64,000 nt of DNA from Acidimicrobiia bacterium. GTDB lineage: Bacteria > Actinomycetota > Acidimicrobiia > Spongiisociales > ZC4RG35. Each line of letters begins with the position of its first letter. Within the stretch, counting starts at the first letter, position 1. Under the pieces are notes generated by a model. The model saw only the letters and a program-made list of their open reading frames with translations. It was not told the origin of the DNA and ran no database searches. The stretch is from contig CBDBCY010000004.1 in assembly GCA_965203555.1 (NCBI GenBank), positions 2,432,001 through 2,496,000 on the forward strand. Reading direction: 5' to 3'. Shown here piece by piece: positions 6,125-39,403 of the stretch. Both the position numbers and the translations under genes were made by a program.

Positions 6125-6148
6125 GCTTCCCGGAGCCCGGAGGGGGTC

Positions 6149-16419: not shown

Positions 16420-16429
16420 GCCGGCCTCT

Positions 16430-19400
16430 GTGTCTGACGTGTCGTTGAGTGGGTGGCGGGTTTGCCTCTGGGTGCTGTTGTTGCCGGCGTCGGCGGCGTT
16501 TTTGTGGCTGTTGGTGGGTGGCGCTCGGGCACAGTCGGTGGCTGCTCCGACGATCGACCATGTGGCGCCGGGTGACACGGGGCTGACGGTGGCCTGGACG
16601 GCGCCTGCGGGGGCGTCGGGGGTGGTGGCCTATGACGTGCGTCATATCCTGACCAGCGCCACCGACAAGTCCGATGCCAACTGGACGGTGGTGGACGAGG
16701 CGTGGACCGAGGGGTCTCTCCGGGTGATCCTGACCGGGTTGACCAATGGTGTCTCCTATGACGTGCAGGTGCGGGCCACCACTGCCGGTGTGGACGGCGC
16801 CTGGTCGAGCACGACCACGGGGACCCCGGCGGAGCCGGGCGATACACATGCGACAGCGGTCAGGTTCGTGGCGGAGCTGCCGGTGCGGGGCGTGCTGGGT
16901 CCGAACGACGACGTGGACTATTTCCGGTTCGACGTCTCCGGCACGGCCATCCGCGAGTACTACGTCTTCACTACGGGAGATACCGATACCTACGGCGAGT
17001 TGTACAACCAGAGCGGTGACCGCCTGAAGTGGTCCAATGACGCGTTTTTTGCGTCGGGTCCGTACAATTTGATGATGACCGGTCGGCTTTCGCCGGGTGC
17101 ATACTATGTCAGGGTGGAGGCGGGCCGTACCGGTGAGCAGGGTCCGTACACGCTGCACCTCGGTTTCCTGGCGGAGACCACCGGTTTGGCCAACGCCACG
17201 CCCGTCGGCCTCGGCGAGGTCGCACGCGGCGTCTTCAGCCGCGCCGGCGGCGCCGGCGTCACGGGAGATGTCGACTACTTCAAGCTGGTACTGTCGCAGG
17301 CCGCCGACGTGGCGGTGCGAGGCGGCGGGCTGGTGTCCGACACGACGGGCGCGATTCTGAATTCGAGCGGCGCCGAGATCGTCACCAGCGACGACGGGTG
17401 GCTGTGGCCCAACACCAGGCAGTTCGCCATGCGGACCCGACTGGCGGCCGGGACCTGGTACATACGGATCGAGCCATGGGTGAATCCGGTCGTACGGACC
17501 TTCGGCTTTCCGGCTCCGACCGGTTTCTACAACCTGTACGTGGACGCGGCGCCGGAGCCGGGCGGCACGACGACCGCGGCGGCCCGCCTGAGGCTGGGGG
17601 ACACCGGCGGCGGCAAGATCGACCCGGCCGGCGACGTCGACTTGTTCCGCATCGACCTCGACTCATCGGCGCGGGTGCGGATCTCGGCGGCGAGCCGCGA
17701 TGTCGACATCGACTTCGAACTGGCGGACCACAACGGCATGACGCTTGCCAACCATGTCTACGATGTCACTGTCGTCAACAGGAGTTCGGTAACTGTGGCG
17801 TACTACAACGTTCTCAGCGGCGGGTTGGCGGCGGGAACCTATTATGTGCGGGTCAGCGCCGAGGATCCGACCGCCACCGGTTCGTACCTGGTGCTGTTCT
17901 CGGACGACAGGGGCTATGATCGTCTCCTGCGTCACTGCCCGCAGGCGCCGGCCGGCATCGACGATCCCCTGTTCGGGTGCCAGTGGCATCTGGGCAACGA
18001 CGGCGGCCTGGGAGGCGTGGCGGGCGAGGACATCAACCTGGGCACGGCGTGGAGCACGACCATGGGCGCCGGCGTCAACGTGGCGGTGGTCGACAGTAGA
18101 CTCGACCCGTTCCATGAGGACCTGAGCGACAACGTGCTGCCGTCGCGCAATCACAGCTACGGTCCGGTCGGCCCGGTGGATAGACACGGTACTGCGGTGG
18201 CCGGTCTGATCGCGGCGCGCGACAACCAACTCGGCATGCGGGGGGTGGCGCCCCGGGCGAGCATCTACGGCTATGACCTGCTATCGGAGTTCAGCCTGGC
18301 GAACGCGGCCGACGCCATGGCGCGGGGACGGGTCACCACGTCGGTCTCCAACAACAGCTGGGGAACCAGCAGCGGTCCCTATGTCGGCCGCTCCTCCCGG
18401 CTGCTGGATCTGGCCATCGAGTCGGGACTGCGGGAGGGCGACGGCGGTAAGGGGGTGGTGTACGTCATATCCGCGGGCAACGACCACGGACAGAGCGGAT
18501 GGGCGTCGCTGGAGGAAATGGAAACCCATCACGGTTTCACCACGGTCTGCGCGGTGGACGCGTTCGGTGAGAGGGCGAGCTATTCCGAGCAGGGACCCAA
18601 CCTGTGGGTGTGCGCTCCGTCCGGGGTTCGGGCATCCAAGATTCGCCCGGACATGGCCACCACGTACAACTACAACCGCTACAGCGATGACTTCAGCGGC
18701 ACGAGCGCCGCCGCGCCGGTGGTGTCGGGGGTGGTTGCGCTGGTGCGGGCCGCGGGCCCCACGCTGACCTGGCGGGACGTGAAACTGATCCTGGCGGAGA
18801 CGGCCCGCAAGAACGACGCCTCGGACAGCGGCTGGCAGCGGGCGGGCCGCAGACGCGGCGGTGGTGGATCGACTCAGTTTTACGAGTACAGCCACAAGTA
18901 CGGTTTCGGGGTGGTGGACGCCGAGGCGGCGGTGCAACTGGCTGCCGGCTGGACGAATCTGCCGCCCATGCGCACCGCCGCCGTGACCTCGACCGGCGGG
19001 ACCGTGTCGGTTCCCGACAACGGAACGAGGGTTTCCCGGAGCGTGAAGATCGACACGCCGATCGATTTCGTGGAGCATGTGGAGTTGGACGCGTCGTTCC
19101 AGGCGCGGGCGTTCCGGGACCTGGAGGTGGAGTTGGTGTCGCCGTCGGGCTCGGTGTCGGTGCTGTCGAAACCCGCGGCGGACCAGTCTTGCCCGCAGTC
19201 GGGCGTCGGAGAGTGTGCTTTGGTGTCGCCGTTTCGGTTCGGCTCTGCCCGGCACCTGGGAGAGGACCCGTCGGGAACGTGGACCCTGCGGATGCGGGAC
19301 CTGCGGTCGGGCGGTCCGGTGTCGAGGCTGGATGGGTGGACGTTGACCGTGTACGGGCACCGTTCCGGGCCGGGGGCGCCTCCGTTGGGTGGGGTGGCGC

Positions 19401-22256
19401 CGGGCGACGGTTCGTTGACCGTGTCGTGGAGCGCTCCGTCCGATGCGGGATCTTCTGCGCTGACCGGCTATGACGTGCGTCACATCCGCAACGCCGCCAC
19501 CGACAAGTCCGACGGGCAGTGGACGGTGGCGGCGGACGCGGCGACGGCCGGTACGAACAGTTACACGATCACCGCACTCACCAACGGTATCCGCCGCGAC
19601 GTGCAGGTGCGGGCCAAGAACAGCACCCGCTCCGGGGTGTGGTCGGTGACCGCGGCGGGGACGCCGGGCGCTTCCAACGGTGTGCCGTTCTTCACCGACG
19701 GCGAGTCCGCCACCCGTACCGTGGAGGAGAACACCGATCCGGGCGTCGACATCGGCTCGGCGGTGGGGGCCCGCGACCCCGACGGCGACACGCTCTCCTA
19801 CACGTTGGACAGTTCAGGTGCGGCCTGGTTCGACATCGTGGCGTCCACCGGCCAGTTGCAGACCAAGGCCCCGCTCGACCACGAGACGCGGGGAAGCTAT
19901 TCGGTGACGGTCTCGGTGCGGGACCAAAAGGACGACGACAACGTGGCTGACACCGCGGTCGACGACACCGTCACCGTCACCGTGGCAGTCGGCGACGTGA
20001 ACGAGCCTCCGGTGGTGAGCGGGCCGGTCCGCTCTGAGGTTGCGGAGGGCAGCCGTAGCCTGGTGGGCGACTATTCGGCCGTCGACCCGGAGGGCTCTTC
20101 GGTCTTTTGGTCGTTGTCCGGCGATGACGCCGCCCTTTTCGTCATAACCAACAGGAGCGGCCTGTTGTTCTTGGACTTCGTGACGCCGCCTGATTTCGAG
20201 TCTCCTGCCGATTCTGATGGTGACAATGTTTACGACGTGACGGTAGAGGCGTTCGACGGTGCGGTGACGGGGATGTTGGACGTGGAGGTGACGGTCACCA
20301 ACGTGAACGAGACCCCGGTTCTGACCGGCCCGTCGACGGTCGAGGTCGACGAGGGAACCGCCACGACCGTGGCCGTTGCCACCTTCACTGTCACCGACCC
20401 TGACAACGACCCCATTACGTGGCTGCTCTGGGGCGAGGACCGGGACGATTTCAGCGTTTCCAATAGTGGTGAGTTGAGCTTCCGGGCGGTGCCTGATTTC
20501 GAGAACCCCGCCGACCGCAACCGTGACAATGTCTATTGGGTGACGGTTCGGGTGTCCGACGGGTCGGTCACCGTTTCGCGGCAGGCTAGGGTGAGGGTGC
20601 GCAACACCGACGAGGCCGGCTCGGTCACGCTCTCGCTGCTGCATCCCCAGGTCGGTACGCGGATCGGGGCTTCGCTTTCCGATCCCGACGGCGGCGTGAC
20701 GTCGGTTGCCTGGCAGTGGCAGTCGTCGTCCAACCAGCAGAACTGGACGGCGATCGCCGGGGCGACCGGGAGGAACTACACGCCGGTGGCGGCCGACGAG
20801 GGCCGGTGGCTGCGAGCGCGGGCGGGCTATCGGGACGGTGAGGGGTCCGGCAAGACCGCCGCCGCCGCGTCGGCGTCGGCCACCCGGGCCGCTCCCCAGG
20901 TGAACCGACCGCCCACGTTCGGCCAAGGCAGCGTGCAGCGCAGCGTCGCGGAGAACACGCCCGCCGGTCAGTCCGTCGGCGCCGCGGTTACGGCTAGCGA
21001 CCCCGACAACGATCTGCTCACCTACGCTCTCGACCGCAGCGGCCGCGCGTTTTTCGATATCGATCCGAATACCGGGGAGCTTTTGACCAAGGCGCCGCTC
21101 AACCACGAGACCCGCGGTTCGCACAACGTGCGGGTGACCGCCAGGGACCCGTCCGGGGCCGCCGCTTCTGTCACTGTGAACATAGAAGTGGTCGACGTCG
21201 ACGAGGACGGGACGCTCACATTGCCGACCAGGCAGTTGAGCGAGGGTCAGACGCTGTCAGCGACGCTCCGGGAGCCCGACACCGGCGTACGCGACCGGGT
21301 GTGGCTGTGGGAACAGTCCACCGACCGGAACAACTGGACGACCATCAGCGGCGCTACCGGGTCGAGCCTGCGGCTGACCGCCGATCACGTCGGCGACTGG
21401 TTGCGGGTCACGGTCACCTACACCGACACGCACGGCGCGGGCAAGACACTGGAAGCCGAAACGCCCAACAGGGTACAGGCGCGAACCACCGGCGGAGGAG
21501 GTGGGTCCCACCGGCGGCGGAGGAGGTGGTGGAGGAGGAGGAGGAGGCGGTGGAGGGGGCGGTGGAGGAGGTGGTGGAGGAGGTGGTGGAGGAGGTGGTG
21601 GGGGTGGTCCGGTTGATGATGGTGGTGGGTTGGACGTAGCGCCTCCCCGCGCTTCCGAGTTGTTCGAGGACGTTCCCGAAGGGGTGTGGTACGAGTCGGC
21701 GGTGTCGTGGATGATCCTCCACGAGGTCACCCAGGGATGTTCTCCGACCCTGTTTTGTCCGGATGAGAAACTGACCCGTCAGCAGTTCGTGACGTTTTTG
21801 TGGAGAGCGGCCGGTAAACCCTCGGGTGAGTACACGGGATCGGAAGCGTTCTCCGATGTCGAGGAGGGGGTGTATTCGGACCGGGCGATCGGGTGGGCGG
21901 TGGCAGAGGAGATCACCTTGGGATGCACACAGGGTTCGTTCGGTACCGAGGACTGGAGGTTCTGTCCCCAACAGCCGGTCACCCGCGGTCAGATGGCCAC
22001 ACTCCTCTACCGGCACACCGAAGCCGACTACGTTGGCGCTCCGCCTTCCTACACCGATGTGGCGCCCGACAGTTTCTACACGCCCAGTGTGTCCTGGTTG
22101 ACCGACTTCCAGGTGGTGCCCGGATGCCACCCCACCCGCTTCTGCCCAGAGCGGCCCGCCACCCGCGCCGAGGCCGCCCTGTTCATCAACGGAGTGGCCA
22201 TCCGCCCCCACATCTGGGGCGAGGGAAACACCAGCTTCATACCCGCCCCCGGCTAG
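16430..22256 (+). CDS. Large S8 (kexin-like) serine protease with FN3, PPC, P-domain, cadherin repeats and SLH anchor; frameshift at ~21503 in Gly linker
   Basis: Triad VAVVDS / HGTAVAG / GTSAAAP; P-domain (FVEHVEL...DLEVELVSPSG); ORF 16370-21616 and SLH ORF 21501-22256 join on removal of one G in GGTGGGTCCC. Confidence 0.88.
21491..21608 (+). repeat. GGN microsatellite poly-Gly linker
   Basis: (GGA/GGT/GGC)n run. Confidence 0.9.
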
Positions 22257-25111: not shown

Positions 25112-25508
25112 GCCGCAATGGAGGAGGGCCGAATTCGGCCCTCGGAGCCCCGCAGGTGGCGCAAGCCCCGAATGGTGTTCGTGCCGCAATGGAGGAGGGC
25201 CGAATTCGGCCCTCGGAGGGGCTCCCCACTTGAACACATCCTCATCGAGACCGCAGCCGCAATGGAGGAGGGCCGAATTCGGCCCTCGGAGAAGCACATA
25301 CCGACCGGGGGCGCCGAAGGGCGCCCCCGCCGCAATGGAGGAGGGCCGAATTCGGCCCTCGGAGTAGGACTGTCCGAGGTGAAGTGAAAGTGATCACCAT
25401 CGCCGCAATGGAGGAGGGCCGAATTCGGCCCTCGGAGGAGAGTCTGGTGTGGGTGTTGGACCTGGCCAGGCAGCCGCAATGGAGGAGGGCCGAATTCGGC
25501 CCTCGGAG
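25112..25508 (-). CRISPR. Type I-G CRISPR array: 6 identical 36-bp repeats, 5 spacers (35,37,37,37,35 bp)
   Basis: GCCGCAATGGAGGAGGGCCGAATTCGGCCCTCGGAG at 25112, 25183, 25256, 25329, 25402, 25473; minus-strand form CTCCGAGGGCCGAATTCGGCCCTCCTCCATTGCGGC; leader faces cas2. Confidence 0.98.
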
Positions 25509-25982: not shown

Positions 25983-27623
25983 TCACCTCGTCATGAATGG
26001 AACGTATTCGGGTATTTCGCCAAGAAGGTAGGCGCCGAGCATCCTGGCCTGAACTTCGAAGACTCGGCGACAAGTTATCCGGTACTTGTAGGTGGGGTGC
26101 GTCACCTGTTGGTCGAGTCGGCGTTCGTAGGCTTTGATGAAGGTTCTCCGTCCCTGGCTGGTCAGTGCTACACCCTGGGCACGTATGACGAAGCCGCTTC
26201 TTCTTATCTCTTCATTGTTGATGAGGGTCAAGACGACCGATTCGGCAACAAGAGGTCGAAACTCCTCGGCCAAATCAAGCGCTAGGGCTGGCCGACCGAA
26301 TCTGGGACGATGGTAGACGCCGAGATATGGGTCGAAGCCCACTGCGAGGGCTGTGGCTGTGAAGTCTTTGACCAGCATCGAATACCCAAAGGACAGCAGA
26401 CAATTGACAGGATCACGCGGTGGTCGGCGGTTTCGGCTGTGAAAGTCAAAGGTGCCCAAGCTGTCGTTCTTGAGCATCGCGGCAAACCGGGAGAAGTACA
26501 GGCGGGCGGCGGTGCCTTCGATCCCCAGCAGAGATTCGATTGAGGGAGCTGATCTGGCTTGGCCGGCGAGAGTGTTGAGTTGGGCGAGAACGCGATCAAC
26601 ATCTACTCGGGAGTTACGTCGAAGAATTGTACGGGAGTTTCGGATCTTGCCTTCGATCATGCGTTGCGCAATGGGCAGTCCCGCCTGGGAGGCAATGGCT
26701 ACTTGGCGTCGTCGCAGTTCGACGTGTTTCGACGGCAAGCCGTGGGCGATGCCCTGGAACCAGCCTCCCCATGAGAACCAGCAGACCGGCGTTTCTCGCA
26801 TGAAGGCTGCCCGCATGAACTGGGAACTGATCTGGACATTGCCGTAGACCGATACCTGGGAGACATCGATCATGCGGACGGCCTTGATCCGCTCGTAGCT
26901 CTTGGACACCACCGCTCTGCCTCCCCTGATACCGATCCTCGCTCCCTGCTCTGTCACATACAAAGGACGGGCTGAAGGATCGCGGGGAACGAGGCGACGA
27001 GGCCGTTTGGCGGAGCGCTTTGTGTGCAGGTTGGTCTCGTCCGGGAGGCAGATGCCCACCAGCGAACACCTCGGACATTTCGGGCTATCGACCAATGGAG
27101 GTGGAGGTTCGGATTTCGAAGCGACCTGGCGCAACTCCTCGACAAGTTGGAGGGTCTTGGATATGAGTTGGTCATCGAAGGGAATTGTGACTCGCTGACG
27201 GATCTCTGCGAAGTAGATCTCTCCCTCAGAACAGTCGTAACCGTTGTCACGAAGCAAGAGACCGATCGCGCACAACTGAACGAGCTCTGGTGACCATGCG
27301 GGGCCATGCTTGGGCGGTCGACCCCGCTTAACCTCTACAGGAGTCACTTGGCCGTTCCCTCCCTCGATGATGTCTGCTTTGGCGATCAGCCCCAATCTTT
27401 CCGACCCCAACATCACAGACCGGGCCTTGCGCACGGGGTCTTCTTCCTCCGGTCCTGCGATCCGACCTCCCCCTGGATCAACGTTCCGATGCACATAACG
27501 ACCTTCCACCGTGTCGGGGTTGTCCACAAATCGAGACTGGACCCACTCCAAATAGAAAAGCCGCGGACAGTATTCGAACTCGTTGACCATCCGAGCCGGA
27601 ACCAAGGCCGGTACGTCAGACAT
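25983..27623 (-). CDS. cas1: Cas4-Cas1 fusion
   Basis: Cas4 YCPR...PVEVKRG...CPRCSLVGICLP; Cas1 LLGIEGTAARLYF...RRPPRDPVNCLLSFGY...LDLAEEFRP. Confidence 0.95.
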   Translation of the reverse strand: MSDVPALVPARMVNEFEYCPRLFYLEWVQSRFVDNPDTVEGRYVHRNVDPGGGRIAGPEEEDPVRKARSVMLGSERLGLIAKADIIEGGNGQVTPVEVKRGRPPKHGPAWSPELVQLCAIGLLLRDNGYDCSEGEIYFAEIRQRVTIPFDDQLISKTLQLVEELRQVASKSEPPPPLVDSPKCPRCSLVGICLPDETNLHTKRSAKRPRRLVPRDPSARPLYVTEQGARIGIRGGRAVVSKSYERIKAVRMIDVSQVSVYGNVQISSQFMRAAFMRETPVCWFSWGGWFQGIAHGLPSKHVELRRRQVAIASQAGLPIAQRMIEGKIRNSRTILRRNSRVDVDRVLAQLNTLAGQARSAPSIESLLGIEGTAARLYFSRFAAMLKNDSLGTFDFHSRNRRPPRDPVNCLLSFGYSMLVKDFTATALAVGFDPYLGVYHRPRFGRPALALDLAEEFRPLVAESVVLTLINNEEIRRSGFVIRAQGVALTSQGRRTFIKAYERRLDQQVTHPTYKYRITCRRVFEVQARMLGAYLLGEIPEYVPFMTR

Positions 27624-27648: not shown

Positions 27649-29049
27649 TCAATCAGGTCTGAACAAACCCAGACCGAAATGTGATAGATGCCCCAGTGCC
27701 AGAGGGCCCTCAATGGGACGGTTGAAGACGAGACGAAGTGATCTCGCTGGCCGCGGTCGGCTGGAATAACCTCCTTGTGGACGGGCCCGCCGGAATCTGC
27801 GCCATTCTGGTCTTTTCAATTCTTGGAAGCGGATGGGTTCGGGATATCCCCGATATCCGAGTTCCCGCTTCAAGTCAGAAGTCAAGTGAGCCTTCCTCTT
27901 CTCGTCATCCATCCATTTGGCGCACGACTTTCCGGGAATGTATGGGGTTTGCGACGCCCAGACATCCGATATACCTGTGAATTCGGGAAGGGCCAACTGC
28001 GTTGAAGCAAGTACCTCCAAGCCCAGCCGATATGTGCCGAGCCGACGCAAATGTTCTGGAGCGGACAGTCGACGAAGGCGGGTGACTCCGGCGATTTCTC
28101 GTTCCCCGAGGCCTCCGGGAGCCCAGATGGCCAGGGTGTCGATGCGTCCGTCGTTGGTGGATGAGAATGCAAGGTAGTGCGCGTGCTGGTGTTGGTCATC
28201 GCGAGGTCCTGTTTCCGTTCGACCAGATAGGACATCGGATGGTTCCTTCGTCCGACTAATGACCGCTTGGCGAAGAAGGTGGCATACGGCCACGGTTTCC
28301 GCAACCGGCGGCCTCCCGGTGTCGGGGAGGTGCCAGCGAGCAGCTGTGATTGCAGAGCGTGGTCTTGGTGTAGAGGTTCTTGGTGGTGAGGAACGGCTGT
28401 CAGCGATTGTGTACTGGACCCAACGAGTCTTGGCTGGGTCTTGATGCCTTGACTTCCGGAGTTCGGTTGGACTTTGGCACAAATCCGCAAAGGAGAAGGT
28501 TGGTGTGGGGACCAAGAGACGCAGGACTTCGCCCTCCGCCCTGCCAGGGAAGCAACGAATGGATGCGGATTCGTTCTCGTAGCCATTCTCGAGCAGTCGG
28601 GCGTGGCAAACAGAATCAGCTCGGCCGAGATAAGGTATGGCGCTGACCAGGGTGGAAAGCAATCCACGGTCTTCTTGGTTGACAACATTGGCGAACTCGA
28701 CGATCAGGTCTTGGTCAGGGTGGATAGAAAGGAACGGGTCAAGGGCAAGAGATCGGTTCTTGCCGGGATTGTTCATGCCGTGCTTGTAACTTGGCATGTA
28801 GTGGCGCGTGTGCGCCGATCCTGCTGGAGGTAGCCAATACGCGGGAGGCTCGGCCATCAGGCGGTTCAGCAAATCCATTACACGGCTTTCCTCCAGGCAC
28901 CACAGCCGGGTCTTCCAAACAGAAACAATGGCCCTGAGAATTCGCCAAGGCGACGGCGGCCATTCGACCCTGCCCTCGTTTACGCTGGCGTCCCAAGGCG
29001 TGGCGTGATAGCGGCCCAGCGGAAAACGAAGGGCCACCCGGGTTGTCAT
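27649..29049 (-). CDS. csb2: Type I-G Csb2 (Cas5/Cas6 fusion)
   Basis: GRYHATPW...EWPPSPWRILRA; YLGRADS; Cas6 G-rich loop GPLALGHLSHFGLGLF. Confidence 0.92.
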   Translation of the reverse strand: MTTRVALRFPLGRYHATPWDASVNEGRVEWPPSPWRILRAIVSVWKTRLWCLEESRVMDLLNRLMAEPPAYWLPPAGSAHTRHYMPSYKHGMNNPGKNRSLALDPFLSIHPDQDLIVEFANVVNQEDRGLLSTLVSAIPYLGRADSVCHARLLENGYENESASIRCFPGRAEGEVLRLLVPTPTFSFADLCQSPTELRKSRHQDPAKTRWVQYTIADSRSSPPRTSTPRPRSAITAARWHLPDTGRPPVAETVAVCHLLRQAVISRTKEPSDVLSGRTETGPRDDQHQHAHYLAFSSTNDGRIDTLAIWAPGGLGEREIAGVTRLRRLSAPEHLRRLGTYRLGLEVLASTQLALPEFTGISDVWASQTPYIPGKSCAKWMDDEKRKAHLTSDLKRELGYRGYPEPIRFQELKRPEWRRFRRARPQGGYSSRPRPARSLRLVFNRPIEGPLALGHLSHFGLGLFRPD

Positions 29050-29993
29050 GCTCTACCCTTCGGGTTCCATACCACCTCAGTGACGGTTTCGGTATCGCGC
29101 AGTTCTCGGCACTCTTCTGCTAGGTGGGCAATCTTTTCTGCCAGCCGAGATGGGTTTGACAGGGATTCAGGCAGATCGCTCTCCACACTGAAAGAGCAGG
29201 CGGTACGCAGTCGCATCTGTTCAGATGCCAGGCTCGCCAGTTCCCATCTTGCCACGGTTTCGAGTATCTCGACCGCTGTAGCGCTTAATCCATAAGATGC
29301 CAGCAGACCGATGTCCAGTGCTGTGCGTAGCCAGATCCTGGCTGCCGTGTACTCGACGCGGTGAAACGGCACCATTCCATATCCCTCAGCCGCACCTCCC
29401 GTAGTCCCGGTCACCTTATGCCTGACATCGTCGGTTTTGACTCCCCCGGAGTGAGCCTCCCGGACATCCTCGGCCTCGATAAAGGCAGTAGTCGCTCTTG
29501 CAATCTTTGGCTGATGGGGCCACTTTCCGACCGCGAAGAAGACCCCGTGGATAAGGTTGAGTGGGTCGAGTCGAAAGATGGTCCGGGCAACTCGACTGGT
29601 GTCAACCGGTCGGTCTTGAACGAGTCCGAAGTCCTCCTCGAGGACTTTGAGAAAGTCCTTCGAGCCCTTCTTGGAGTTGCGGATAAAGGCGGAAGCGAGA
29701 CGATGGGCTTCGGTCCGGCTCGAAGTCAGATACTCACCGCTGTCGTTGACGACTCTCACCCACGGAAGCCCCGCGAGTTGTTCTACAGGATGATTGTCGA
29801 GGTCATTCCAACCCTGCGCTTCCAAGTGATTGGCCATCGACTGTGCGGATTCGACCAACAGCATCTTGGTGGTCTGCCCGTTAGGTCTTGGCTGGTCGTA
29901 CAGAGCCGCTCCCAGATCGGGGAACCCGGTCGGTTGGAAACGTCCGCTTGGCTCGGAACGAAGCGACAGATGGTGTATCTCCTGTTGTGTCAT
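29046..29993 (-). CDS. csb1: Type I-G Csb1/Cas7g
   Basis: RFQPTGFPDLG, LLVESAQSMANHLE, EAHRLAS, GYGMVPF, LRTAC; ATG 29993 overlaps csx17 stop. Confidence 0.93.
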   Translation of the reverse strand: MTQQEIHHLSLRSEPSGRFQPTGFPDLGAALYDQPRPNGQTTKMLLVESAQSMANHLEAQGWNDLDNHPVEQLAGLPWVRVVNDSGEYLTSSRTEAHRLASAFIRNSKKGSKDFLKVLEEDFGLVQDRPVDTSRVARTIFRLDPLNLIHGVFFAVGKWPHQPKIARATTAFIEAEDVREAHSGGVKTDDVRHKVTGTTGGAAEGYGMVPFHRVEYTAARIWLRTALDIGLLASYGLSATAVEILETVARWELASLASEQMRLRTACSFSVESDLPESLSNPSRLAEKIAHLAEECRELRDTETVTEVVWNPKGRA

Positions 29994-32224
29994 TTTGTTT
30001 CTCCTTCGGATGGACGTGGGGGACAAACGTTCCTGATAGCGTGTTCAACGGTGCGGGGAGAGATGGGAATCAATAGAGAGGCGAGAAGCCTGTCGGGCGA
30101 AGGGACACGAATGAATCTGGGTCGCACCGCAGGACTGAATCCTGCCGCCCGTAGCCGAACGATCGCCTCTCGCAGCACGGCTTGGACGTTCCCTGCTCGT
30201 AGTTTTTGTGGCCAGGTGAGCGAAGGAAGCAGATAGCGTTTTTCTTGCTCACCGGTATCTTCGCTGGGGACCTTGACAGGCCGTGCGTGGTAGAAGGGTG
30301 CCAGCAGCGCTCTCGCAACTGAGATGTCCCTTGGCTGATCCCCTGGATCGGCTTTGAAGGATGGGGGATATGCCAGCAGAGAGGCCACAGAAAGAAGTCG
30401 CCGGAGTCGCCGGCCGTCCAGAGGGTTGTTGAGGAAGGCCGACAGGTCAGCCGGGCCTAGCGGTCCTGCGTGGTCGAAGGCCACCAGCGATCCAGACCCC
30501 ACTGCAGGAGCATCCTCTTGGGGCTGGCGGGTCCGAGAGAGCATAGAGCGTGTAACGACTGCGGCTGCTAAGCCCTCAATTACGGTCCTTGACCCAAGAT
30601 AGTCGGGAGGTCGGTCAGCCCATTCGGGAGGCTTCCATGGATCCTTATGAAGCTTGACCGGCCGGAGCAATGCGCTAGCGGATCCGCTTCGCTGCTCGGG
30701 CTCCGTCAGCCTTCTTCCCCCTGGTGGGCGGTCGGCTTGAGTAGCGATTGCCGCCGCCAGTCGCCACTCGAAAGTATTGTCTTCCAGCGCCTCGGCCCAT
30801 CGTCCTGTGTCAAGCGGTGGCAGGGGAAACCCAACACCCTCTCGCAGGTCGGGATTGCGACTGATGGTCTGTTCCAAGGAGGCGAGTTCTGTTAGGAATT
30901 CTTGTAGCGGTTCAGGTCTGTCAGGTTTACGAACAACCTCCATCTGGGCGGCGTCGATACGGCGCAGTGCGGATCTTGCAGCGCCGGGCGGGGACTGTCT
31001 GCGGACACGATTCACCCAGTGATCAGTTTCTCCAAGAAGGCTGACGCGGTCTGCTGGCTGAGCGGCAACGTCAAAAGTACCAACCGGGACTGCGAGTGGC
31101 GACTGCCCAAAGCGTTCGGCGATGACGTATCTCTCGAAGCTGCCTAGTCCCCGGTCAACACCGAGAGTGGTCAAAGCCTTGGCAGCATCCAAGCCATGGG
31201 CCGCATGTCTTCCGTTCCACGAGATCCGCCCTTCTGCGATCACGCGGCGCAATTCCGGTACTGTGAGAGGGCGTTTCCAAAGTGGCGCCCAGAACTCACC
31301 TTTCACGTTCTCGCCTTCGGCGGACGTGTAACCCGCCGGACTACTCGGTACGGTGAACGGGGTGGTAGCCATCCCGCGGGAGCCGCCGAACCTGCGTGCT
31401 ATTCCGGAAGTGAACAGCAAAGTTCCTTCTAAGCCCAAAACGAAACTCCACAAGTTCTCCACGCTCTCAGCACTTCCGAAGGCGGAGGAGTTCATGGTTC
31501 CTGCGGCTCCTGGTGAAAACTGTCCCACTGGCTTTTTATCCAACCGGGGATGACCTTCGTCAAACAGGGAGTGGCTGAGCAGTTTTGCGCTCCGTTTTCG
31601 ATGCCTCGGGTCTAGTAGAAAGGAAAGGGCCTCCATGTAGTTTGTTGCGAGATCCAGCCTTCCGAGATTTCCGCCGGTCCCCAGCAACAGCGGGTATTGA
31701 GGTTTCTTCTCGTCGGCGATCACCACAGTTGCATCTAACCAATCGAGCGCCTCGTCAGGAAAGAGAGATCGACATCGAGCAAGGAAGGTGCTCTTGTCAA
31801 CTTTGAGAATGTATTTGTCATTCTTTCCGACTTGCTTCTCCCACCGCTCCTCGATCCATCCCGATGCCATTCCTTCACCCCACGCACGCCGTGCCTCTTC
31901 TATCGCGAACCGGAATGGTGCAAATCGAGAGCTGTCGTTTGATTCGATCTTGGCAACGGCCCTTTCGCCCTTTTCACACTTCAAAGTTCTGAAACCACCG
32001 CCGCCGTTCCAAGGTGAGAGCATCGGTGTAGGTTTATAGCTTTCCAGGAAGAATCCCTGTATGGCGTCGCGGGCTAGGTCACTGTTGATGTGGAGAGTGG
32101 AGTCCTTCCAAAAAGACAAAAGCTCAGACGAGCATTGCTTATGGAGAATGCTCAGAATCCCTAATCCTCGTAGGTATGAGAGCAAGGGAGTAGAACGACA
32201 ACCGGTCAAGGCGATGAGACTCAA
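29990..32224 (-). CDS. csx17: Type I-G large subunit Csx17/Cas8g
   Basis: LTGC..PL.SYL, PWNGGGGF, LLGTGGNLGRLD, GEFWAPLW, RGLGSFERY. Confidence 0.9.
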   Translation of the reverse strand: MSLIALTGCRSTPLLSYLRGLGILSILHKQCSSELLSFWKDSTLHINSDLARDAIQGFFLESYKPTPMLSPWNGGGGFRTLKCEKGERAVAKIESNDSSRFAPFRFAIEEARRAWGEGMASGWIEERWEKQVGKNDKYILKVDKSTFLARCRSLFPDEALDWLDATVVIADEKKPQYPLLLGTGGNLGRLDLATNYMEALSFLLDPRHRKRSAKLLSHSLFDEGHPRLDKKPVGQFSPGAAGTMNSSAFGSAESVENLWSFVLGLEGTLLFTSGIARRFGGSRGMATTPFTVPSSPAGYTSAEGENVKGEFWAPLWKRPLTVPELRRVIAEGRISWNGRHAAHGLDAAKALTTLGVDRGLGSFERYVIAERFGQSPLAVPVGTFDVAAQPADRVSLLGETDHWVNRVRRQSPPGAARSALRRIDAAQMEVVRKPDRPEPLQEFLTELASLEQTISRNPDLREGVGFPLPPLDTGRWAEALEDNTFEWRLAAAIATQADRPPGGRRLTEPEQRSGSASALLRPVKLHKDPWKPPEWADRPPDYLGSRTVIEGLAAAVVTRSMLSRTRQPQEDAPAVGSGSLVAFDHAGPLGPADLSAFLNNPLDGRRLRRLLSVASLLAYPPSFKADPGDQPRDISVARALLAPFYHARPVKVPSEDTGEQEKRYLLPSLTWPQKLRAGNVQAVLREAIVRLRAAGFSPAVRPRFIRVPSPDRLLASLLIPISPRTVEHAIRNVCPPRPSEGETK

Positions 32225-34614
32225 GACAGTGCCCTCCCCGGGTTAGCACTGGCTCGCCAATCGGCCATCCTCACCAGCATCTCCAGAAATGCCAGACGGA
32301 AGGGTCCCAGATCGGACCGATCGCGGAGTGTGAGCATCCGAGCGGTGTAACTGGGGGCAAGACCATCGCCGTTGCCCAAGCCTACGTCTGCGAGACAAAC
32401 CTCGCCCCCGCGGGTCTTCCCGCCGGGTATCTCCACGGCTGGCACGTAGTCGCCATCCACCACCCCGAGCGCGATGTCTCGGGCTCTCTTGTTCGGCGGG
32501 GGCCGTTCGTCTTCCAATCGACGGACCCCCAACCGGACTCGGCCATGGTGTCCTGCTGCTAAGAAAACCACTAGGTCAGGTTCAGCTACGTCTTCAAGAA
32601 GGAATCGTTCGGGGCCAAGCAGCATCAAGGCGGAGACAAGACCGTGCCGGAAGTGTCTCTGGGAGTATCTCAAGGTCCGTTTGTTTCCTCCTTTGGCGAG
32701 CACCGCTTCCTCCTCCGGGAGAGGATCAGAGTCTGCCCGTGTCTTCCTGATAGCGTCTTGGAAAACTTGATGTGCCTTGCCGAGGTCGTGATATCTGGCA
32801 GCCAACCGTGCCGCCTGAACGGCATTGGTAGGTACGTCAAGGGATCCGAATTCGTCTATTATTTCTACGAAGGATGATTCGGTGTCCGCCAAATGATCCC
32901 GGAGTGTCAACCACGGGACTCGGGAGAAGGCGCTTGCCGGATCATCGCCTATAGCCGAATCATGCTGATCGGCCAACACTTTATCGCCGGAGACCGGCGT
33001 AACAGGTTTGGAGGAACGGTCCCAGCCCAGTTCGGATCCATAACCGCCGGTGGCTACGTCAAGGACAACCGTCAAATTAGGTCGTATGTCACGGGCCAAG
33101 ATTTGCGACCAGCGGCGTTCGCCCCGGGCTAGCGGATCTGCTACAAAGGCACGCGCTTTTTTATTGCTGACGAATCTCCGTAACTCTCCTATAGGTACAC
33201 GGCAGATCTCTGTGGCGGAGGGTCCGGTATCAGGCGACGGATGGTTGTCGTCGGTGACCGTGCGCCAGAGCACCATCACGTCACGATCAGCGGTGTCGCG
33301 AATGAACCGCCCGACGTCAATGTCGTTGCCGGTCAGGTCTGGCAAGGTGTCGAACAACTCAACAAGGTCACGTCTGCGGAGAGTGGGAACCGGATCGAGG
33401 TTCGTTTGGACAGTCTTTGCCGACAGCGATGTCGGTGTAACCGTGTCTGGGAGGCTGGTCAGCACTCTCTCGGCAGTGTCGAGTTCATCTTGGTTGTAGG
33501 GATGAGCAGTCTTAGGTCGCATCCACAACATCTGGGCGTCCACTGTTTCGCCTGTTCTGTTGCAGCGTCCCGCTCTTTGCACGAGGGATGACCAAGGCGC
33601 CAGATCGGTGAGGAGGGTTGCAGATGAGATGTCCAGGCCGGCTTCCACGACCTGGGTGGCAATCACAATGCGTCCCGATAATGGGATATCAGCCAGGATC
33701 CGGCTTAGCGCAGCTTGGCGGTCTCCTTGGCGAAATCGTGAATGAATCAGTACCACCTCAGCGTCTGTCTTCATTCTCCTGAGTGCCTTATAAGAGTCCT
33801 GTGCGCGCCTCACATTGTTCGCAACCACCAGTGTCAAAGTGTCGGGTCGGTGATTGTCATAGGCGAGGCGGGCTACATCTATAGGTTTTGGTGCGTGTCC
33901 AACATCTCGGATTTGACGCGGCGCGTCAGATCGTTTGGTCAATGTCTCCCAGGAGCGATCCTCTTCGCCGAGTTCCACAATGCGGCCTACCTCCGGTGCA
34001 TCAACGGTCTTAAGCGCATTGAAGTTCACTGTTGCCGACATCCACATGGTGCTCGTGGGCTGAGCGGTGCCGAAGATCTCGCGAAAGGCTTGAATTTGAC
34101 GCCCGGTCGACACGGCTGCATCCATCAGTTGGATCTCATCGAATACCCACTGGCACCCGGAGTTGAAGGCGCCGAAAGAGATGGGCCAATTCCATCGGTT
34201 GTCTGCGAATCCGCGGTTGAGAGCCCGTGAGAGAAGCATGTCCATCGTGCCTATGAACACGGCATCACGCTCTGGATTGAGTCTCCACTCTTGATCACTC
34301 CAGGCGGCTCCGCCCATCACGCGGTGGACTCCCAGTTCTTCCTGGCCGAGACCAAGGGCTTCCCGCCACTTGACGAACCGATTGAAGGTTTGGTCGACAA
34401 GTGTGCGCATGGGAAGGGCGTAAACCAGCCATCTAGGGGTTGTCCCCCGGGCGGCGTGCCTCCGGAGCCACAGCCAACTAAGCCCCGCGGCTTCCGTTTT
34501 CCCACATCCCGTATCCACTCGCAACACTTCGGGCAATCCTTCGTGGGCGAGACGCGATTGGTAGGGATAGGGATTGTGGCTTGTCGCCTGCCGGAAAAAA
34601 CCGCTGAAATCCAT
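32221..34614 (-). CDS. cas3: Type I-G Cas3 (helicase with C-terminal HD nuclease)
   Basis: PYPYQ, TGCGKT, DEIQ, SAT, QRAGRCNR; C-terminal H...YHDLGKAH...HH...ADWRAS. Confidence 0.95.
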   Translation of the reverse strand: MDFSGFFRQATSHNPYPYQSRLAHEGLPEVLRVDTGCGKTEAAGLSWLWLRRHAARGTTPRWLVYALPMRTLVDQTFNRFVKWREALGLGQEELGVHRVMGGAAWSDQEWRLNPERDAVFIGTMDMLLSRALNRGFADNRWNWPISFGAFNSGCQWVFDEIQLMDAAVSTGRQIQAFREIFGTAQPTSTMWMSATVNFNALKTVDAPEVGRIVELGEEDRSWETLTKRSDAPRQIRDVGHAPKPIDVARLAYDNHRPDTLTLVVANNVRRAQDSYKALRRMKTDAEVVLIHSRFRQGDRQAALSRILADIPLSGRIVIATQVVEAGLDISSATLLTDLAPWSSLVQRAGRCNRTGETVDAQMLWMRPKTAHPYNQDELDTAERVLTSLPDTVTPTSLSAKTVQTNLDPVPTLRRRDLVELFDTLPDLTGNDIDVGRFIRDTADRDVMVLWRTVTDDNHPSPDTGPSATEICRVPIGELRRFVSNKKARAFVADPLARGERRWSQILARDIRPNLTVVLDVATGGYGSELGWDRSSKPVTPVSGDKVLADQHDSAIGDDPASAFSRVPWLTLRDHLADTESSFVEIIDEFGSLDVPTNAVQAARLAARYHDLGKAHQVFQDAIRKTRADSDPLPEEEAVLAKGGNKRTLRYSQRHFRHGLVSALMLLGPERFLLEDVAEPDLVVFLAAGHHGRVRLGVRRLEDERPPPNKRARDIALGVVDGDYVPAVEIPGGKTRGGEVCLADVGLGNGDGLAPSYTARMLTLRDRSDLGPFRLAFLEMLVRMADWRASANPGRALS

Positions 34615-34901
34615 TACTTACCTCCACCAGTGGGAGCAAGGCCCACTTTCTTAGGGACGGGTGTCGTTGGATAGCATCTTCGGGTACGCATTTCTGTCGT
34701 TGGCTTAGTGTAGATAGAGGGGTGTGACACCTTGCCATTGGCGTTTTTAGTTGGAGGTCTCTGACTGAAGCAGATAGAGCACATGGGGACATTCCCGCTG
34801 CCCCAAGCGTCAACGGGTTCTCCTTTGGTCTTGTGAGCGCGCCATTCCCAATAGTCATGTTGCTTTCCTCCAGCGATGATCCACGGTGTGATGAGACCCA
34901 T
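34614..34901 (-). CDS. Unknown 95-aa protein translationally coupled to cas3 (candidate CRISPR-repressed toxin or accessory factor)
   Basis: ATG 9 nt after TATAAT; stop overlaps cas3 start (GGAGGTAAG-TAA-TG); contains CSIC and further His/Cys residues. Confidence 0.55.
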   Translation of the reverse strand: MGLITPWIIAGGKQHDYWEWRAHKTKGEPVDAWGSGNVPMCSICFSQRPPTKNANGKVSHPSIYTKPTTEMRTRRCYPTTPVPKKVGLAPTGGGK

Positions 34902-34910
34902 GTCGCCTTG

Positions 34911-34940
34911 ATTATAGGCACTCTGGTCCCATACAGCCAA
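34911..34940 (-). promoter_or_regulatory. Sigma70-type promoter of ORF95-cas operon (TTGGCT-18-TATAAT), overlapped by mini-array target
   Basis: -10 TATAAT at 34916-34911, -35 TTGGCT at 34940-34935; protospacer-like site 34947-34930 with TTG PAM 34950-34948. Confidence 0.7.
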
Positions 34941-34965
34941 CTATCAGCAACTGTACTCACGGGAA

Positions 34966-35059
34966 GCCAAAAGAGGCAGGACCTGGCGAGGGTCCCGGCA
35001 GGTTGAGCATACATCCAGCTATCAGGCCGCAATGGAGGCCAGGTCCCGCCTTGTCGGAG
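34966..35059 (-). CRISPR. Degenerate CRISPR mini-array (crRNA-like regulatory RNA): psiR1 35026-35059, 24-nt spacer 35002-35025, psiR2 34966-35001
   Basis: psiR1 keeps CTCCGA start and CCTCCATTGCGGC 3' end incl. 8-nt handle; psiR2 is 36 nt with compensated stem GGACC/GGTCC; spacer matches adjacent promoter. Confidence 0.8.
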
Positions 35060-35212
35060 GATACCGCAATTGCCACTTGACAAGTGTCAGGACAGGGAGA
35101 AGCGTGTTGCCTCAGCCTGGAGGCCTTTTGGCAGGTCCAACGCGCACCACCCCGACATTCATCTGCGGGGGAGGGGGAGATTGGTGTGGTGTATTGTTCG
35201 GCGCAAAGCATT

Positions 35213-35434
35213 ATGACCAACGACCTGACCGACGAGGGTGTGGAGGCAATCCTGCAACGTGGTTCCCCTGCCTCATGGCCGGACTCCCACAGTGATGAGT
35301 TGAAGATACCCTTCGGTCGCCACCGGGATAACATCTGGATCATCGGGGATATCGTCTCTCCCATGCCTGTCGAGTGGTTCGAAGGGAGTGTTGATGGGGA
35401 CGAGGACTTGTTTAGCCCACTGACGAGTGGTTAA
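35213..35434 (+). CDS. Small acidic protein, antitoxin-like C-terminus
   Basis: KIPFGRHRDNIWIIGDIVSPMPVEWFEG resembles C-terminal tails of VapC-partner antitoxins; no adjacent toxin. Confidence 0.45.
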   Translation: MTNDLTDEGVEAILQRGSPASWPDSHSDELKIPFGRHRDNIWIIGDIVSPMPVEWFEGSVDGDEDLFSPLTSG

Positions 35435-35694
35435 GTCAAGAGGAATGCCGAGGGATTGCACTATGGAGCGTTCGGTGGAGTTGCGCTCCATCGCCTGGGT
35501 TGTTTCACCACTGACACTTCCTCCTGATCCCCTCCTGAGTCGGAGATGGCCAGTGCGCCTCTGGCGAATGGAGCAAGTGGGATGAACGGGACCGCTGATG
35601 GAGGGCGGCAGGGGGTGGCAAAGAGCCAATCTGTCACAGGGCCAAGGTTATGCTGAGCCTATGGTGTCCAGTCGAGATCAGGAGGGGAAACCGT

Positions 35695-36450
35695 ATGACA
35701 ACTGAAGCCGCTGTCTTTTCTGGAAGTGAGGCGACCCAAGGGGCGACGCGCACCTTGTTCCAATCAAAAAAGCGTGAGGTGCGGAATGGCGCTGCTACGA
35801 ACGAGCTTGTTCTGAGCGCCTATGTGGGTGGGAACGAACATGTCTTTCCTCGAGTGATGGGCTTGTACGTAAGTCCCGGAAGTGTGGTGGCTGATGTCAC
35901 CTACGGCAAGGGTGTGTTCTGGAAGAACATACCGGCCGACCGCTATACGCTCCTGGCCACGGACATCCAGGACGGGGTGGACTGCCGGGATCTCCCTTAT
36001 GCGGATGAAGAGATCGACTGTGTGGTTCTCGATCCCCCTTACATGCACTCACCTGGGGGTACTGCCCATCGCTCTCATACGCCCTTTGAGACCTACTACA
36101 GGAATAACGGGTCGGGAGGACAGACTCGTCGGAAATATCACGAAGCCGTTTTGGACCTGTACCTCGACGCTGCGCGGGAAGCGTATCGTGTGTTGCGCGA
36201 GAGGGGCGTTTTCATCGTCAAGTGCCAAGATCAGGTTTGTTCCAACCGGCAGCGCTTCACCCATGTCGAGATTATGGAGGCGTGTGGCGAGATGGGGTTC
36301 GTCGCGGAAGACCTGTTTGTTGTTGTGCGGAACAATCGACCGGGGGTCAGCCGCGTGGTTCGCCAGGTGCATGCCCGCAAGAACCACTCCTATTTCTTGG
36401 TGTTCTGGAAGCGCGGGGCCAAGGGGTCACTGTGGGAAGCTCCCGGCTGA
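35695..36450 (+). CDS. Amino (N6A/N4C) DNA methyltransferase
   Basis: RBS GGAGG; SAM-binding VADVTYGKGVFW; catalytic VVLDPPY; HARKNHSYFLVF. Confidence 0.85.
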   Translation: MTTEAAVFSGSEATQGATRTLFQSKKREVRNGAATNELVLSAYVGGNEHVFPRVMGLYVSPGSVVADVTYGKGVFWKNIPADRYTLLATDIQDGVDCRDLPYADEEIDCVVLDPPYMHSPGGTAHRSHTPFETYYRNNGSGGQTRRKYHEAVLDLYLDAAREAYRVLRERGVFIVKCQDQVCSNRQRFTHVEIMEACGEMGFVAEDLFVVVRNNRPGVSRVVRQVHARKNHSYFLVFWKRGAKGSLWEAPG

Positions 36451-36947: not shown

Positions 36948-38046
36948 CCGGAGACCAGCTTTTCGATGAGGGTGACCGAACGGAGTGAGGCTGTGCCGTC
37001 TCCGTAGGGGGTGGGGGTATTGGCTAAGCGGCGGTGGGTGCAGTCCAGGGTTTCCGTTATCTGGGTGATGGCCTCGTTCACTCCGTCGCCAGGCTTGCGG
37101 AGTATGGCGAAGGTGCCCAGGACTTCGGGGCGTTCGGTGGAGTTGCGGACGACCACCATGGGGCGTTTGACTACTGATACCTCTTCCTGAACTCCGCCCG
37201 AGTCGGAGACTGCCAGGGCGCATTCGGCGAGGAGGGAGAGGAACTCTGGGTAGGGGAGGGGTCCACTACTCGCAGCCGGTCGAGGAGCGGCTGCAGTCCG
37301 AACGAGGCGGCGCGGTGACGGCTGCGCGGGTGGAGCGGCAGCACGACCGGCAGGGAAAGTCCGGCCAGATCGGAGAGGATGGTTTTCCAAGTCCGGGGAT
37401 GGTCGACGTTCTCGGGGCGATGGAAGGTGGAGAGGATGAACCCGTTGGGATTCAGACCGTGGCGGTTCAGGATCCGAGCACGCTGGTCGGGAAGTGGAAG
37501 TAGCGACTCCAGCGCCTCCACCACCGGGTTGCCGGTGACCGCCACCCGGTCGCCCGCTATCCCCTCCCTGGCCAGGTTGGAGGCCGATGTCTCGGTGGGC
37601 GCCAGGCACAGGTCGGAGAGATGGTCGCACACCACCCGGTTGTGTTCTTCGGGCATGGCCCGGTCGTAGCTGCGCAGTCCCGCCTCCACATGCACCAGCA
37701 GAGTCTCGGTGGCGTTGGCGGCCAGTGAGCCGGCCAGCACCGCGTTGGTGTCTCCCTGCACCACCACCGCCCGCGGAGGGTCATTCAGGAAAAGACGGGT
37801 GAGGCGGGAGGTGGCCTCTCCGATCTGGATGCCCCGGGGCTCCCCTCCAACCTCGAGGAAGTGGGTCGGGAGGGGCAGGTCGAAGGCCCTGAAAAACGCC
37901 GCAGAGAGGTTGGCGTCGTAGTGCTGTCCGGTGTGGATCACCCGGGCGGCGGGTCCCAGCAGTTTGATGATGTGGGCCAGCTTGATGATTTCCGGACGGG
38001 TGCCGAGCACGATGGCGACGGCGCCGGGAGGCAGATCAGCGGTCAT
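36944..38046 (-). CDS. wecB: UDP-N-acetylglucosamine 2-epimerase with -1 frameshift in C-run (~37258)
   Basis: GTRPEIIK, HTGQHY, QGDT, HVEAGLRS, PEEHNR; second frame LPYPEF...SDSGGVQEE...TERPE...PYGDG. Confidence 0.85.
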
Positions 38047-39299: not shown

Positions 39300-39366
39300 T
39301 TGAACCGCCTAGATCTCCTGACGGTGACTAGGCCCAGCAAAGACCCGCCTCGAGGCGGGTCTTTGT
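39300..39366 (+). ncRNA. Candidate ~65-nt two-hairpin small RNA
   Basis: Hairpin GCCTAG-ATCTCC-TGAC-GGTGA-CTAGGC followed by terminator hairpin. Confidence 0.45.
39338..39365. terminator. Bidirectional intrinsic terminator-like hairpin
   Basis: CAAAGACCCGCC-TCGA-GGCGGGTCTTTG perfect inverted repeat. Confidence 0.8.
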
Positions 39367-39403
39367 GCATCACGTCCACCGGGTCTTTGTGCATCACGTC
39401 CAC
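39356..39403. repeat. Exact 24-bp tandem duplication
   Basis: CGGGTCTTTGTGCATCACGTCCAC at 39356-39379 and 39380-39403. Confidence 0.95.

Follow-up and report, generated by a model that had tools for sequence, protein, structure and literature searches.

A rare small-protein gene at the head of type I-G CRISPR-Cas operons in uncultured Acidimicrobiia, possibly part of a CRISPR-repressed cassette

What, if anything, is encoded between the promoter and cas3 at the head of a type I-G CRISPR-Cas operon? The question is raised by a 64,000-nucleotide (nt) stretch of an Acidimicrobiia bacterium genome (contig CBDBCY010000004.1, positions 2,432,001 to 2,496,000; hereafter the window), in which a 95-codon open reading frame (ORF) for a 95-aa product, P0001, occupies 34614..34901 of the minus strand and runs from an ATG at 34901 to a TAA at 34616-34614. 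An earlier interpretation made from the letters alone (the sequence-only reading) had described an ATG lying 9 nt past a TATAAT, a stop codon overlapping the cas3 start and a basic, Trp/Pro-rich product of no known Cas family, and had proposed either a CRISPR-repressed toxin or a new I-G accessory factor. The descriptive part can be confirmed throughout. The TATAAT belongs to the only sigma70-like match in 34400-35300, and the last A of the TAA is the first A of the cas3 ATG (TAATG), at 34614. The full product has an isoelectric point (pI) of 9.9, with 14 Lys and Arg residues against 5 Asp and Glu, 4 Trp and 11 Pro, and PADLOC assigns it 0 families at E<=0.1, with no family from Pfam (E<=0.01) or PHROGs either. 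What emerges from the analysis below is that the functional unit would be smaller than the ORF, namely a 46-residue N-terminal module with a His-His-Cys-Cys pattern, and that its gene may sit in a portable cassette held off by the CRISPR machinery itself.

Taken alone, P0001 could be a chance ORF in GC-rich DNA, and it is the homologues that argue otherwise. An exhaustive phmmer search of 1.84 billion representatives returned 8 small proteins (47-121 aa, E 2e-8 to 6e-6) that align to P0001 over residues 1-47 up to 1-61 at 38-49% identity. A profile search led to 2 further members, and the members from that search all come from metagenome assemblies and carry neither a name nor a Pfam domain. 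Scanning 185,579 species genomes for the motif gave 4 loci, L018-L021, in metagenome-assembled genomes (MAGs) of Acidimicrobiia or Spongiisociaceae. The family comprises 13 relatives plus P0001, and these 14 aligned members share a common start at Met1. Eleven residues (M1, G2, G12, H15, Y17, W20, H23, W33, P39, C41 and C44) are invariant in all 14, and L3, W18, D31 and G34 are conserved in at least 90% of them. P0001 is the most divergent member, with 21-44% identity to the rest, yet it has every one of the invariant residues.

The DNA of this module (codons 1-46, 34764..34901, minus strand) also bears the signature of a coding sequence. In each of 10 pairwise comparisons, the third codon position differs more often (21-28) than the first (12-19) or the second (9-17), and residues that are identical differ by 6-14 synonymous codon changes per pair. 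In L020 and L021, a strong Shine-Dalgarno (SD) sequence, AAAGGAGG, lies ahead of the small-gene ATG. Because of the invariant residues from Met1, the third-position bias and these SD sequences, codons 1-46 are, as judged by comparison, protein-coding and under selection. This bears directly on the possibility that the 288 nt are not a gene and merely form a long, open 5' untranslated region of cas3, the outcome that the sequence-only reading tied to a lack of homologues with codon-level conservation. Such a region would account for the absence of the window ORF from the protein collection, for a competing frame that is open for 201 codons across the same DNA, and for the part of the ORF past residue 46, which is not conserved as protein. 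It is at odds with homologues reaching E 2e-8 among 1.84 billion proteins and with the coding signature, is already contradicted for codons 1-46 on the comparative data, and can be considered very improbable. The absence itself came to light through a k-mer protein search with P0001, which found no match, the window's own ORF included; since that ORF is not in the collection, the gene caller of the source seems to have passed over it.

Several other candidates were set aside. A 373-aa repeat protein from the phmmer run is a spurious match, and a 109-codon ORF upstream of cas3 in G008, a genome of the same genus, reaches only a BLASTP E of 0.07. Locus L022 and the metagenome loci L023-L027 share only a HEYWRWRDHK-like stretch with the family and have no Met-Gly-Leu start, CxxC or cas genes. 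These six loci, from one Acidobacteria MAG and five soil-type metagenome contigs, carry a near-identical, start-less 107-codon frame, a highly conserved DNA element that matches the search motif by chance. A six-frame search of 60 related genomes gave chance-level matches only (best E 0.005, with internal stops). Longer or fused forms of the small protein were not found, either in a targeted search, which is weak evidence, or in the phmmer results.

What kind of protein might the module be? Four of its invariant residues, H15, H23, C41 and C44, form the ligand pattern H-x7-H-x17-C-x2-C, from which we infer that the module binds metal. The combination of two His, two Cys and a Trp-rich helix presumably resembles that of small nucleic-acid- or protein-binding zinc modules. 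The sequence-only reading had offered a Zn-binding regulator as its alternative; the four invariant potential ligands fit this idea. H60 and C76, which P0001 has beyond C41-x2-C44, fall in its unconserved C-terminal half. Pfam gives sub-threshold matches, below any curated cut-off: three of the 14 members match TerY_C (best E 0.011) and one matches YacG (E 0.088). As in zinc-knuckle domains of this type, the CxxC knuckle is preceded by Pro; unlike them, the family has the H-x7-H-x17-C-x2-C pattern in place of C4. No match was obtained with a PDB sequence profile (best E 0.17) or in the ESM Atlas (best score 0.77), and KilA-type families are absent at E<=10 across the 14 members. Two AlphaFold2 runs, with mean confidence (pLDDT) of 55.9 and 58.9, place a low-confidence helix at residues 14-23 and a second, short one at the CxxC, and Foldseek found 0 matches in the PDB for the second model. 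The profile and structure searches that the sequence-only reading had called for have therefore yielded homologues and no known family, and by these searches the small-protein family is new, rare and without a recognised relative. A complex prediction of module residues 1-50 with Cas3 and Zn (score 0.01) gives no verdict and counts neither way. By its composition, the module (pI 6.7, grand average of hydropathy -0.27) is soluble and near-neutral and not a membrane peptide. With the tail at -1.11 on the same scale, the protein has none of the hydrophobic or transmembrane character of type I toxin-like peptides.

A gene of this size can best be understood through its neighbours, and DNA context is available for five loci (the window and L018-L021), all from related uncultured bacteria. 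As judged by tblastn with the window Cas proteins and by PADLOC, the small gene is the first gene of a type I-G operon in 4 of 4 genuine relative loci, and it is co-directional with the cas genes at every locus. Two layouts exist. In layout A (the window and L019), the small gene is followed by cas3g, cas8g (~740 aa), cas7g and cas5/6g; in layout B (L018, L020 and L021), it is followed by cas7g, cas5/6g, cas3g (~915 aa), a short cas8g and cas4-cas1. Thus, the co-occurrence with cas3 and mini-arrays that had been suggested as a check is borne out for the head of an I-G operon (5 of 5 loci) and, as described below, for a mini-array (4 of 5), and not for cas3 as the constant neighbour, since cas7g comes next in three loci. 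In the window, the gene after P0001 is cas3g (32221..34614, minus strand, 797 aa, ATG at 34614..34612), identified by PADLOC at E=3.9e-244 and by the Pfam domains Cas3-like_C_2, DEAD and Cas3_HD. It is followed downstream by cas8g (29990-32224), cas7g (29046-30026), cas5/6g (27649-29049) and cas4-cas1 (25983-27623), and then by a CRISPR array of 6 repeats (25112-25508).

The promoter ahead of the small gene, P1 (34911..34940, minus strand), consists of a -35 TTGGCT (34940-34935), an 18-nt spacer and the -10 TATAAT (34916-34911), which leaves 9 nt before the ATG and makes the mRNA near-leaderless. It matches the consensus at 10/12 positions, and shuffled sequence yields 0.4 +/- 0.6 hits. Upstream of it lies a CRISPR-like mini-array made up of a degenerate repeat, psiR1 (35026..35059, minus strand), which ends in an exact 12-nt copy (35037-35026) of the CRISPR repeat's 3' end; a pseudo-spacer, psiS (34992..35025, minus strand); and a hairpin with a T-run (34967..34997, minus strand), which can be taken as a second pseudo-repeat or a terminator-like end of the mini-array. 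The claim that the small gene stands behind a promoter that the mini-array matches is upheld, with the window pseudo-spacer matching 16 of the first 20 nt of a target that starts at 34947, is flanked 5' by TTG (34950-34948) and overlaps the P1 -35 (34925..34950, minus strand); 0 of 2000 shuffles do as well.

The same arrangement recurs in L018, L020 and L021. Across these and the window, the pseudo-spacer and its target agree at 15-17 of the first 20 nt, a level reached by 0-1 of 2000 shuffles. TTN is the protospacer-adjacent motif (PAM) of type I-G, and TTG, TTC or TTA stands 5' of the target in 3 of the 4 mini-array loci. The window, L018 and L021 carry the 12-mer handle from the repeat 3' end unchanged, whereas the copy in L020, at the corresponding position, differs by 2 mismatches; the genomes of L019, L020 and L021 contain large CRISPR arrays whose repeats have this 3' end. 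The sole promoter-like site before the small gene has a -35 that the target overlaps in the window, L020 and L021. By these measures, the match between mini-array and promoter is not chance, and by analogy with known systems it is fairly likely that P1 is repressed by Cascade together with the mini-array RNA. Rfam has 0 matches at E<=1. In L020, the mismatches between pseudo-spacer (6863-6890) and target (6920-6947) fall at positions 6, 9, 12, 15 and 18, a strict 3-nt period that is unlike the other loci. In 12 loci that lack the small gene, the region upstream of cas7g does not contain the handle 12-mer; the search used this handle and not those genomes' own repeats, so the test is not a fair one. 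One further I-G locus, L042 (G056, 900-1440), carries the repeat 3' handle with a single mismatch ~510 nt upstream of cas7g. Behind it comes an ORF of 97 codons that has a strong SD, encodes two hydrophobic segments and shows no relation to the His/Cys family; it may be an analogous cargo gene.

If only the module is conserved, what is the rest of the ORF? Past residue 46, the family members differ in both sequence and length (47-121 aa), and the tail of P0001 (codons 47-95, 34614..34763, minus strand) is basic and Pro-rich with a pI of 10.8. Several tails share a weak K-[LV]-S-H motif, which turns out to be a DNA element, TGTCACA, read in frame. In the window, TGTCACA (34729-34723) and a TACACT -10-like hexamer (34712-34707) lie inside the P0001 tail (34707..34729, minus strand), and the consensus of the element is (T/G)TGTCACA(C)C, 8-10 nt and then a cAtAcT-like hexamer. 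On the sense strand and no more than 250 nt (36-243 nt) upstream of the first cas gene, TGTCACA is found in 10 of 18 I-G loci of the class examined, namely the window, L010 (~1258), L018, L019, L020, L021, L039, L041, L042 and L043. Against a background of 5e-5 per nt, the binomial P is ~4e-15, for a motif defined post hoc in loci that are related. The spacing of 11-13 nt from TGTCACA to the hexamer is too short for a canonical -35/-10 pair, and the two may be an operator plus the -10 of the native cas promoter. The element also occurs in loci without the small gene (L039, L041, L042, L043 and G008), and so it is not a private operator of the small protein. Because it separates the module from the first cas gene and is found in these small-gene-less loci as well, the element suggests that the cas genes keep a control region of their own, separate from P1.

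We read the P0001 tail, including the overlap with the cas3 ATG, as a probable lineage-specific read-through of the native cas 5' regulatory region. Also within the ORF's 3' end is the SD-like sequence of cas3, GGTGGAGG (34621..34628, minus strand). The proposal of a whole 95-aa protein thus stands for residues 1-46 and falls for the tail. A ninth protein of the phmmer run, the 79-aa P0002, aligns with P0001 over residues 32-95 only and could be mistaken for support of a tail protein. It was rejected as a chimeric gene call: over its residues 1-37 it aligns to the window DNA out of frame with P0001 (29/50 identities), and only the remainder is in frame, so that at its source locus the frame changes between module and tail. 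A three-way DNA alignment of the cas3-proximal regions was uninformative.

The way in which the small gene is distributed can help to separate the possible roles of its product. Cas7g is present in 29 of 400 other genomes of the class, and a credible match to the small-protein profile in 0 of 400, so in 0 of the 29 I-G genomes. This class sample gave only the genome of the window itself and one marginal match with an internal stop, a sample of 400 genomes of the phylum gave only the window's own genome, and no relative was found in viral contigs, phage records or plasmid records. The unpublished genomes G039, G050 and G666 enter only tallies such as those of the 60 related genomes and of Cas7g. 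G008 is informative here, having a Cas3 that is 64% identical and a 60-repeat array of a near-identical repeat (the window array has 6 repeats); it lacks both the module and the pseudo-repeat or mini-array and keeps TGTCACA. On this sampling, the small gene is rare and optional. Its history can be compared with that of the Cas proteins. Within layout A (window against L019), module identity is 41% and Cas identity 55-68%; within layout B, the values are 51-62% and 53-86%; between layouts, they are 50-57% and 24-32%. Because module identity fails to track Cas identity, the history of the small gene is, by this comparison, decoupled from that of the Cas proteins. This could come about by movement of the cassette from one I-G operon to another or by exchange of operons behind a cassette that stays put. 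Shared by L019, L020 and L021 despite their two layouts is a divergent AlgH-like (PF02622) neighbour at ~6140-6970 (minus strand), which suggests operon replacement at one chromosomal site with the head region retained, and fits the second of these histories.

These patterns weigh on the view that the product is a co-expressed accessory or regulatory factor of type I-G and no toxin, encoded by the first cistron of an autorepressed cas operon of the CreR type and acting together with the CRISPR machinery, on it, or on its expression, say as a tuner of Cas3 or Cascade or as a nucleic-acid binder at the locus. Its constant co-directional, operon-first position speaks for such a factor, as do the overlaps of stop and start with cas3 in the window (TAATG) and L019 (ATGA), the absence, in L020 and L021, of any terminator or further sigma70-like promoter ahead of cas7g, the retention of the gene in L019, where no mini-array is detectable, and the presumed likeness of the His/Cys motif and Trp-rich helix to small zinc modules. 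However, the gene is missing from 29 of 29 other sampled I-G genomes of the class and from G008, and is therefore dispensable for I-G; it does not co-diverge with Cas across layouts; the gene that follows it varies between cas3 and cas7g; and no fused forms were found. The general I-G accessory factor that the sequence-only reading had entertained is contradicted by the sampled genomes, and an accessory role of the narrower kind is the main rival, somewhat less likely than the cassette model below.

What, then, would be the function of the locus? The model that we tentatively favour, by analogy with a published system, is a portable CRISPR-repressed protein cassette whose product would act as a CreP-like guard. 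In its favour are a distribution like that of a cassette, a history decoupled from that of Cas, a promoter and SD that are strong, and the joint loss of mini-array and module in G008. The cassette would have three parts, a mini-array (degenerate repeat, pseudo-spacer and hairpin), the strong promoter P1 and the small ORF, and would have been placed upstream of the native cas regulatory region of type I-G operons. Cascade loaded with the mini-array RNA would bind P1 and keep the small gene off, in analogy to CreA and CreR RNAs. Were Cascade lost or blocked, for instance by anti-CRISPRs, P1 would fire and the protein would be made (in the window, from a near-leaderless mRNA), so that the small protein would probably be produced only when the CRISPR machinery fails. 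As a growth-arresting or alarm effector, the product would make the cas locus addictive or abort infections that disable Cascade. Repression of P1 by Cascade, metal binding and toxicity are all predicted properties here. With slightly less confidence, the cassette may be a mobile alarm for Cascade failure that has moved between two very different I-G operon types and carries a new class of effector unrelated to CreP.

The closest known counterpart is CrePA of Acinetobacter type I-F systems, in which a 103-aa KilAC protein toxin is repressed by CreA (10.1101/2024.01.05.574328). Both have a mini-array with two repeat-like elements inside the cas locus, a pseudo-spacer that partly matches the promoter of an adjacent ORF of ~100 codons beside a PAM, and a patchy distribution in one lineage only. 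The present family differs in encoding an unrelated protein, with no KilAC and no Pfam match, in a type I-G and not a I-F locus; in standing at the operon head, co-directional and with no obvious terminator, whereas CrePA is described in the cas3-csy1 intergenic region; and in having 1 of 5 loci without a detectable mini-array. The CrePA product is reported to be a toxin; toxicity of the present product is a prediction. CreR mini-array RNAs, as described in 10.1101/2023.03.10.532045, guide Cascade to partly matching cas promoters and silence them, and here too a degenerate mini-CRISPR matches the promoter heading the effector cas genes. The window, L020 and L021 have no sigma70-like match ahead of the operon other than P1, yet the TGTCACA/-10-like element lies downstream of the small gene; this second conserved cis element and a conserved ORF both stand between the matched promoter and the cas genes, where CreR circuits have no protein-coding gene. 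In CreTA of haloarchaeal I-B systems, Cascade and a crRNA-like RNA silence the promoter next door, so that the cas locus is guarded by the module, as would be the case here; but CreT is a small RNA acting via rare codons (PMC10120712, PMC9458426), whereas the present gene is conserved at the amino-acid level across 46 codons. As for type I-G itself, creA-like elements for subtype I-U (now I-G) are mentioned for Figure S7 of 10.1101/2023.03.10.532045, and in the text of Shmakov et al. I-G appears only in a table (PMC10120712). No small protein gene heading I-G operons was described in the literature searched, which did not extend to supplements that possibly list I-G mini-arrays, even these loci. 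Taken together, the kind of circuit is known; what is new is the protein family, its place at the I-G operon head in two layouts and its pairing with a second conserved cis element.

Several observations weigh against a CreP-like guard. In L019, neither the 450 nt upstream of the small gene nor the rest of the noncoding part of the 14-kb locus holds a recognisable pseudo-repeat, only a 13/15 direct repeat and weak hairpins being seen. Its small gene is nevertheless intact, as are the related P0011 and P0006, and a toxin would not be expected to survive without its repressor. The soluble, near-neutral module is without similarity to CreP/KilAC or toxin families and without a confident fold. L020 and L021 have no terminator-like site or second sigma70-like promoter between the small gene and cas7g, and because of this and the stop/start overlaps with cas3 in the window and L019, P1 transcripts probably carry the cas genes too, as in CreR autoregulation, so that a toxin would be co-expressed with Cas. 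The small number of loci with DNA context and their relatedness count in the same direction. If TGTCACA serves as the operon's own promoter, the guard and accessory roles could be reconciled.

Alternatively, the protein could be a CRISPR-supervised, non-toxic regulator induced on Cascade failure, which would act on second-line defences or stress, or it could be a hitchhiker of little function in the mini-array and promoter region. CrRNA-like RNAs (crlRNAs) are reported to control other defence systems (10.1101/2024.12.27.630466), and the high divergence of the window copy, the frame change at the P0002 source locus and the window array of only 6 repeats would suit decay or hitchhiking. Set against this are the retention of 11 of 11 invariant residues in the window copy, the failure to identify any target genes or binding sites, and the presence of TGTCACA in genomes without the protein, which shows that the element is not an operator for this protein alone. 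We consider this possibility improbable.

The remaining features of the window lie outside this circuit. Upstream of the mini-array, a short divergent ORF at ~35213-35434 (plus strand) belongs to no Pfam family and its DNA is similar to the corresponding region of G008. Farther on, two repeat copies at 35460-35567 and 37122-37230, ~1.66 kb apart, are 76-88% identical, and a DNA methylase-like ORF is found at 35650-36450. A perfect 24-nt tandem duplication occurs at 39356-39403. On the other side of the cas operon, a 1748-codon ORF (16370-21616, plus strand) ends at its C-terminus in long Gly-rich GGX repeats (21504-21626).

The importance of this locus lies in how few comparable cases exist. 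Guards of the CreTA and CrePA kind and CreR autoregulation have been discovered only recently. Protein guards repressed by CRISPR are known from one lineage only, the Acinetobacter I-F systems with their KilAC-domain toxin. With the locus described here, another protein family, unrelated to the first, comes under what appears to be crRNA-like control, in type I-G systems of uncultured Acidimicrobiia and in an architecture that blends CreR and CrePA. If the alarm-cassette model is true, no protein-based guard repressed by CRISPR would have been known before outside type I-F, and this one would be placed upstream of the cas operon's own control region. Should the protein be toxic, it would point to a new cellular target and a new anti-anti-CRISPR device; should it not be, it would be a new I-G-linked regulator. 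Its 46-residue module can easily be synthesised, mutated and assayed. Either way, the locus reveals an unannotated gene family that standard gene callers have partly missed.

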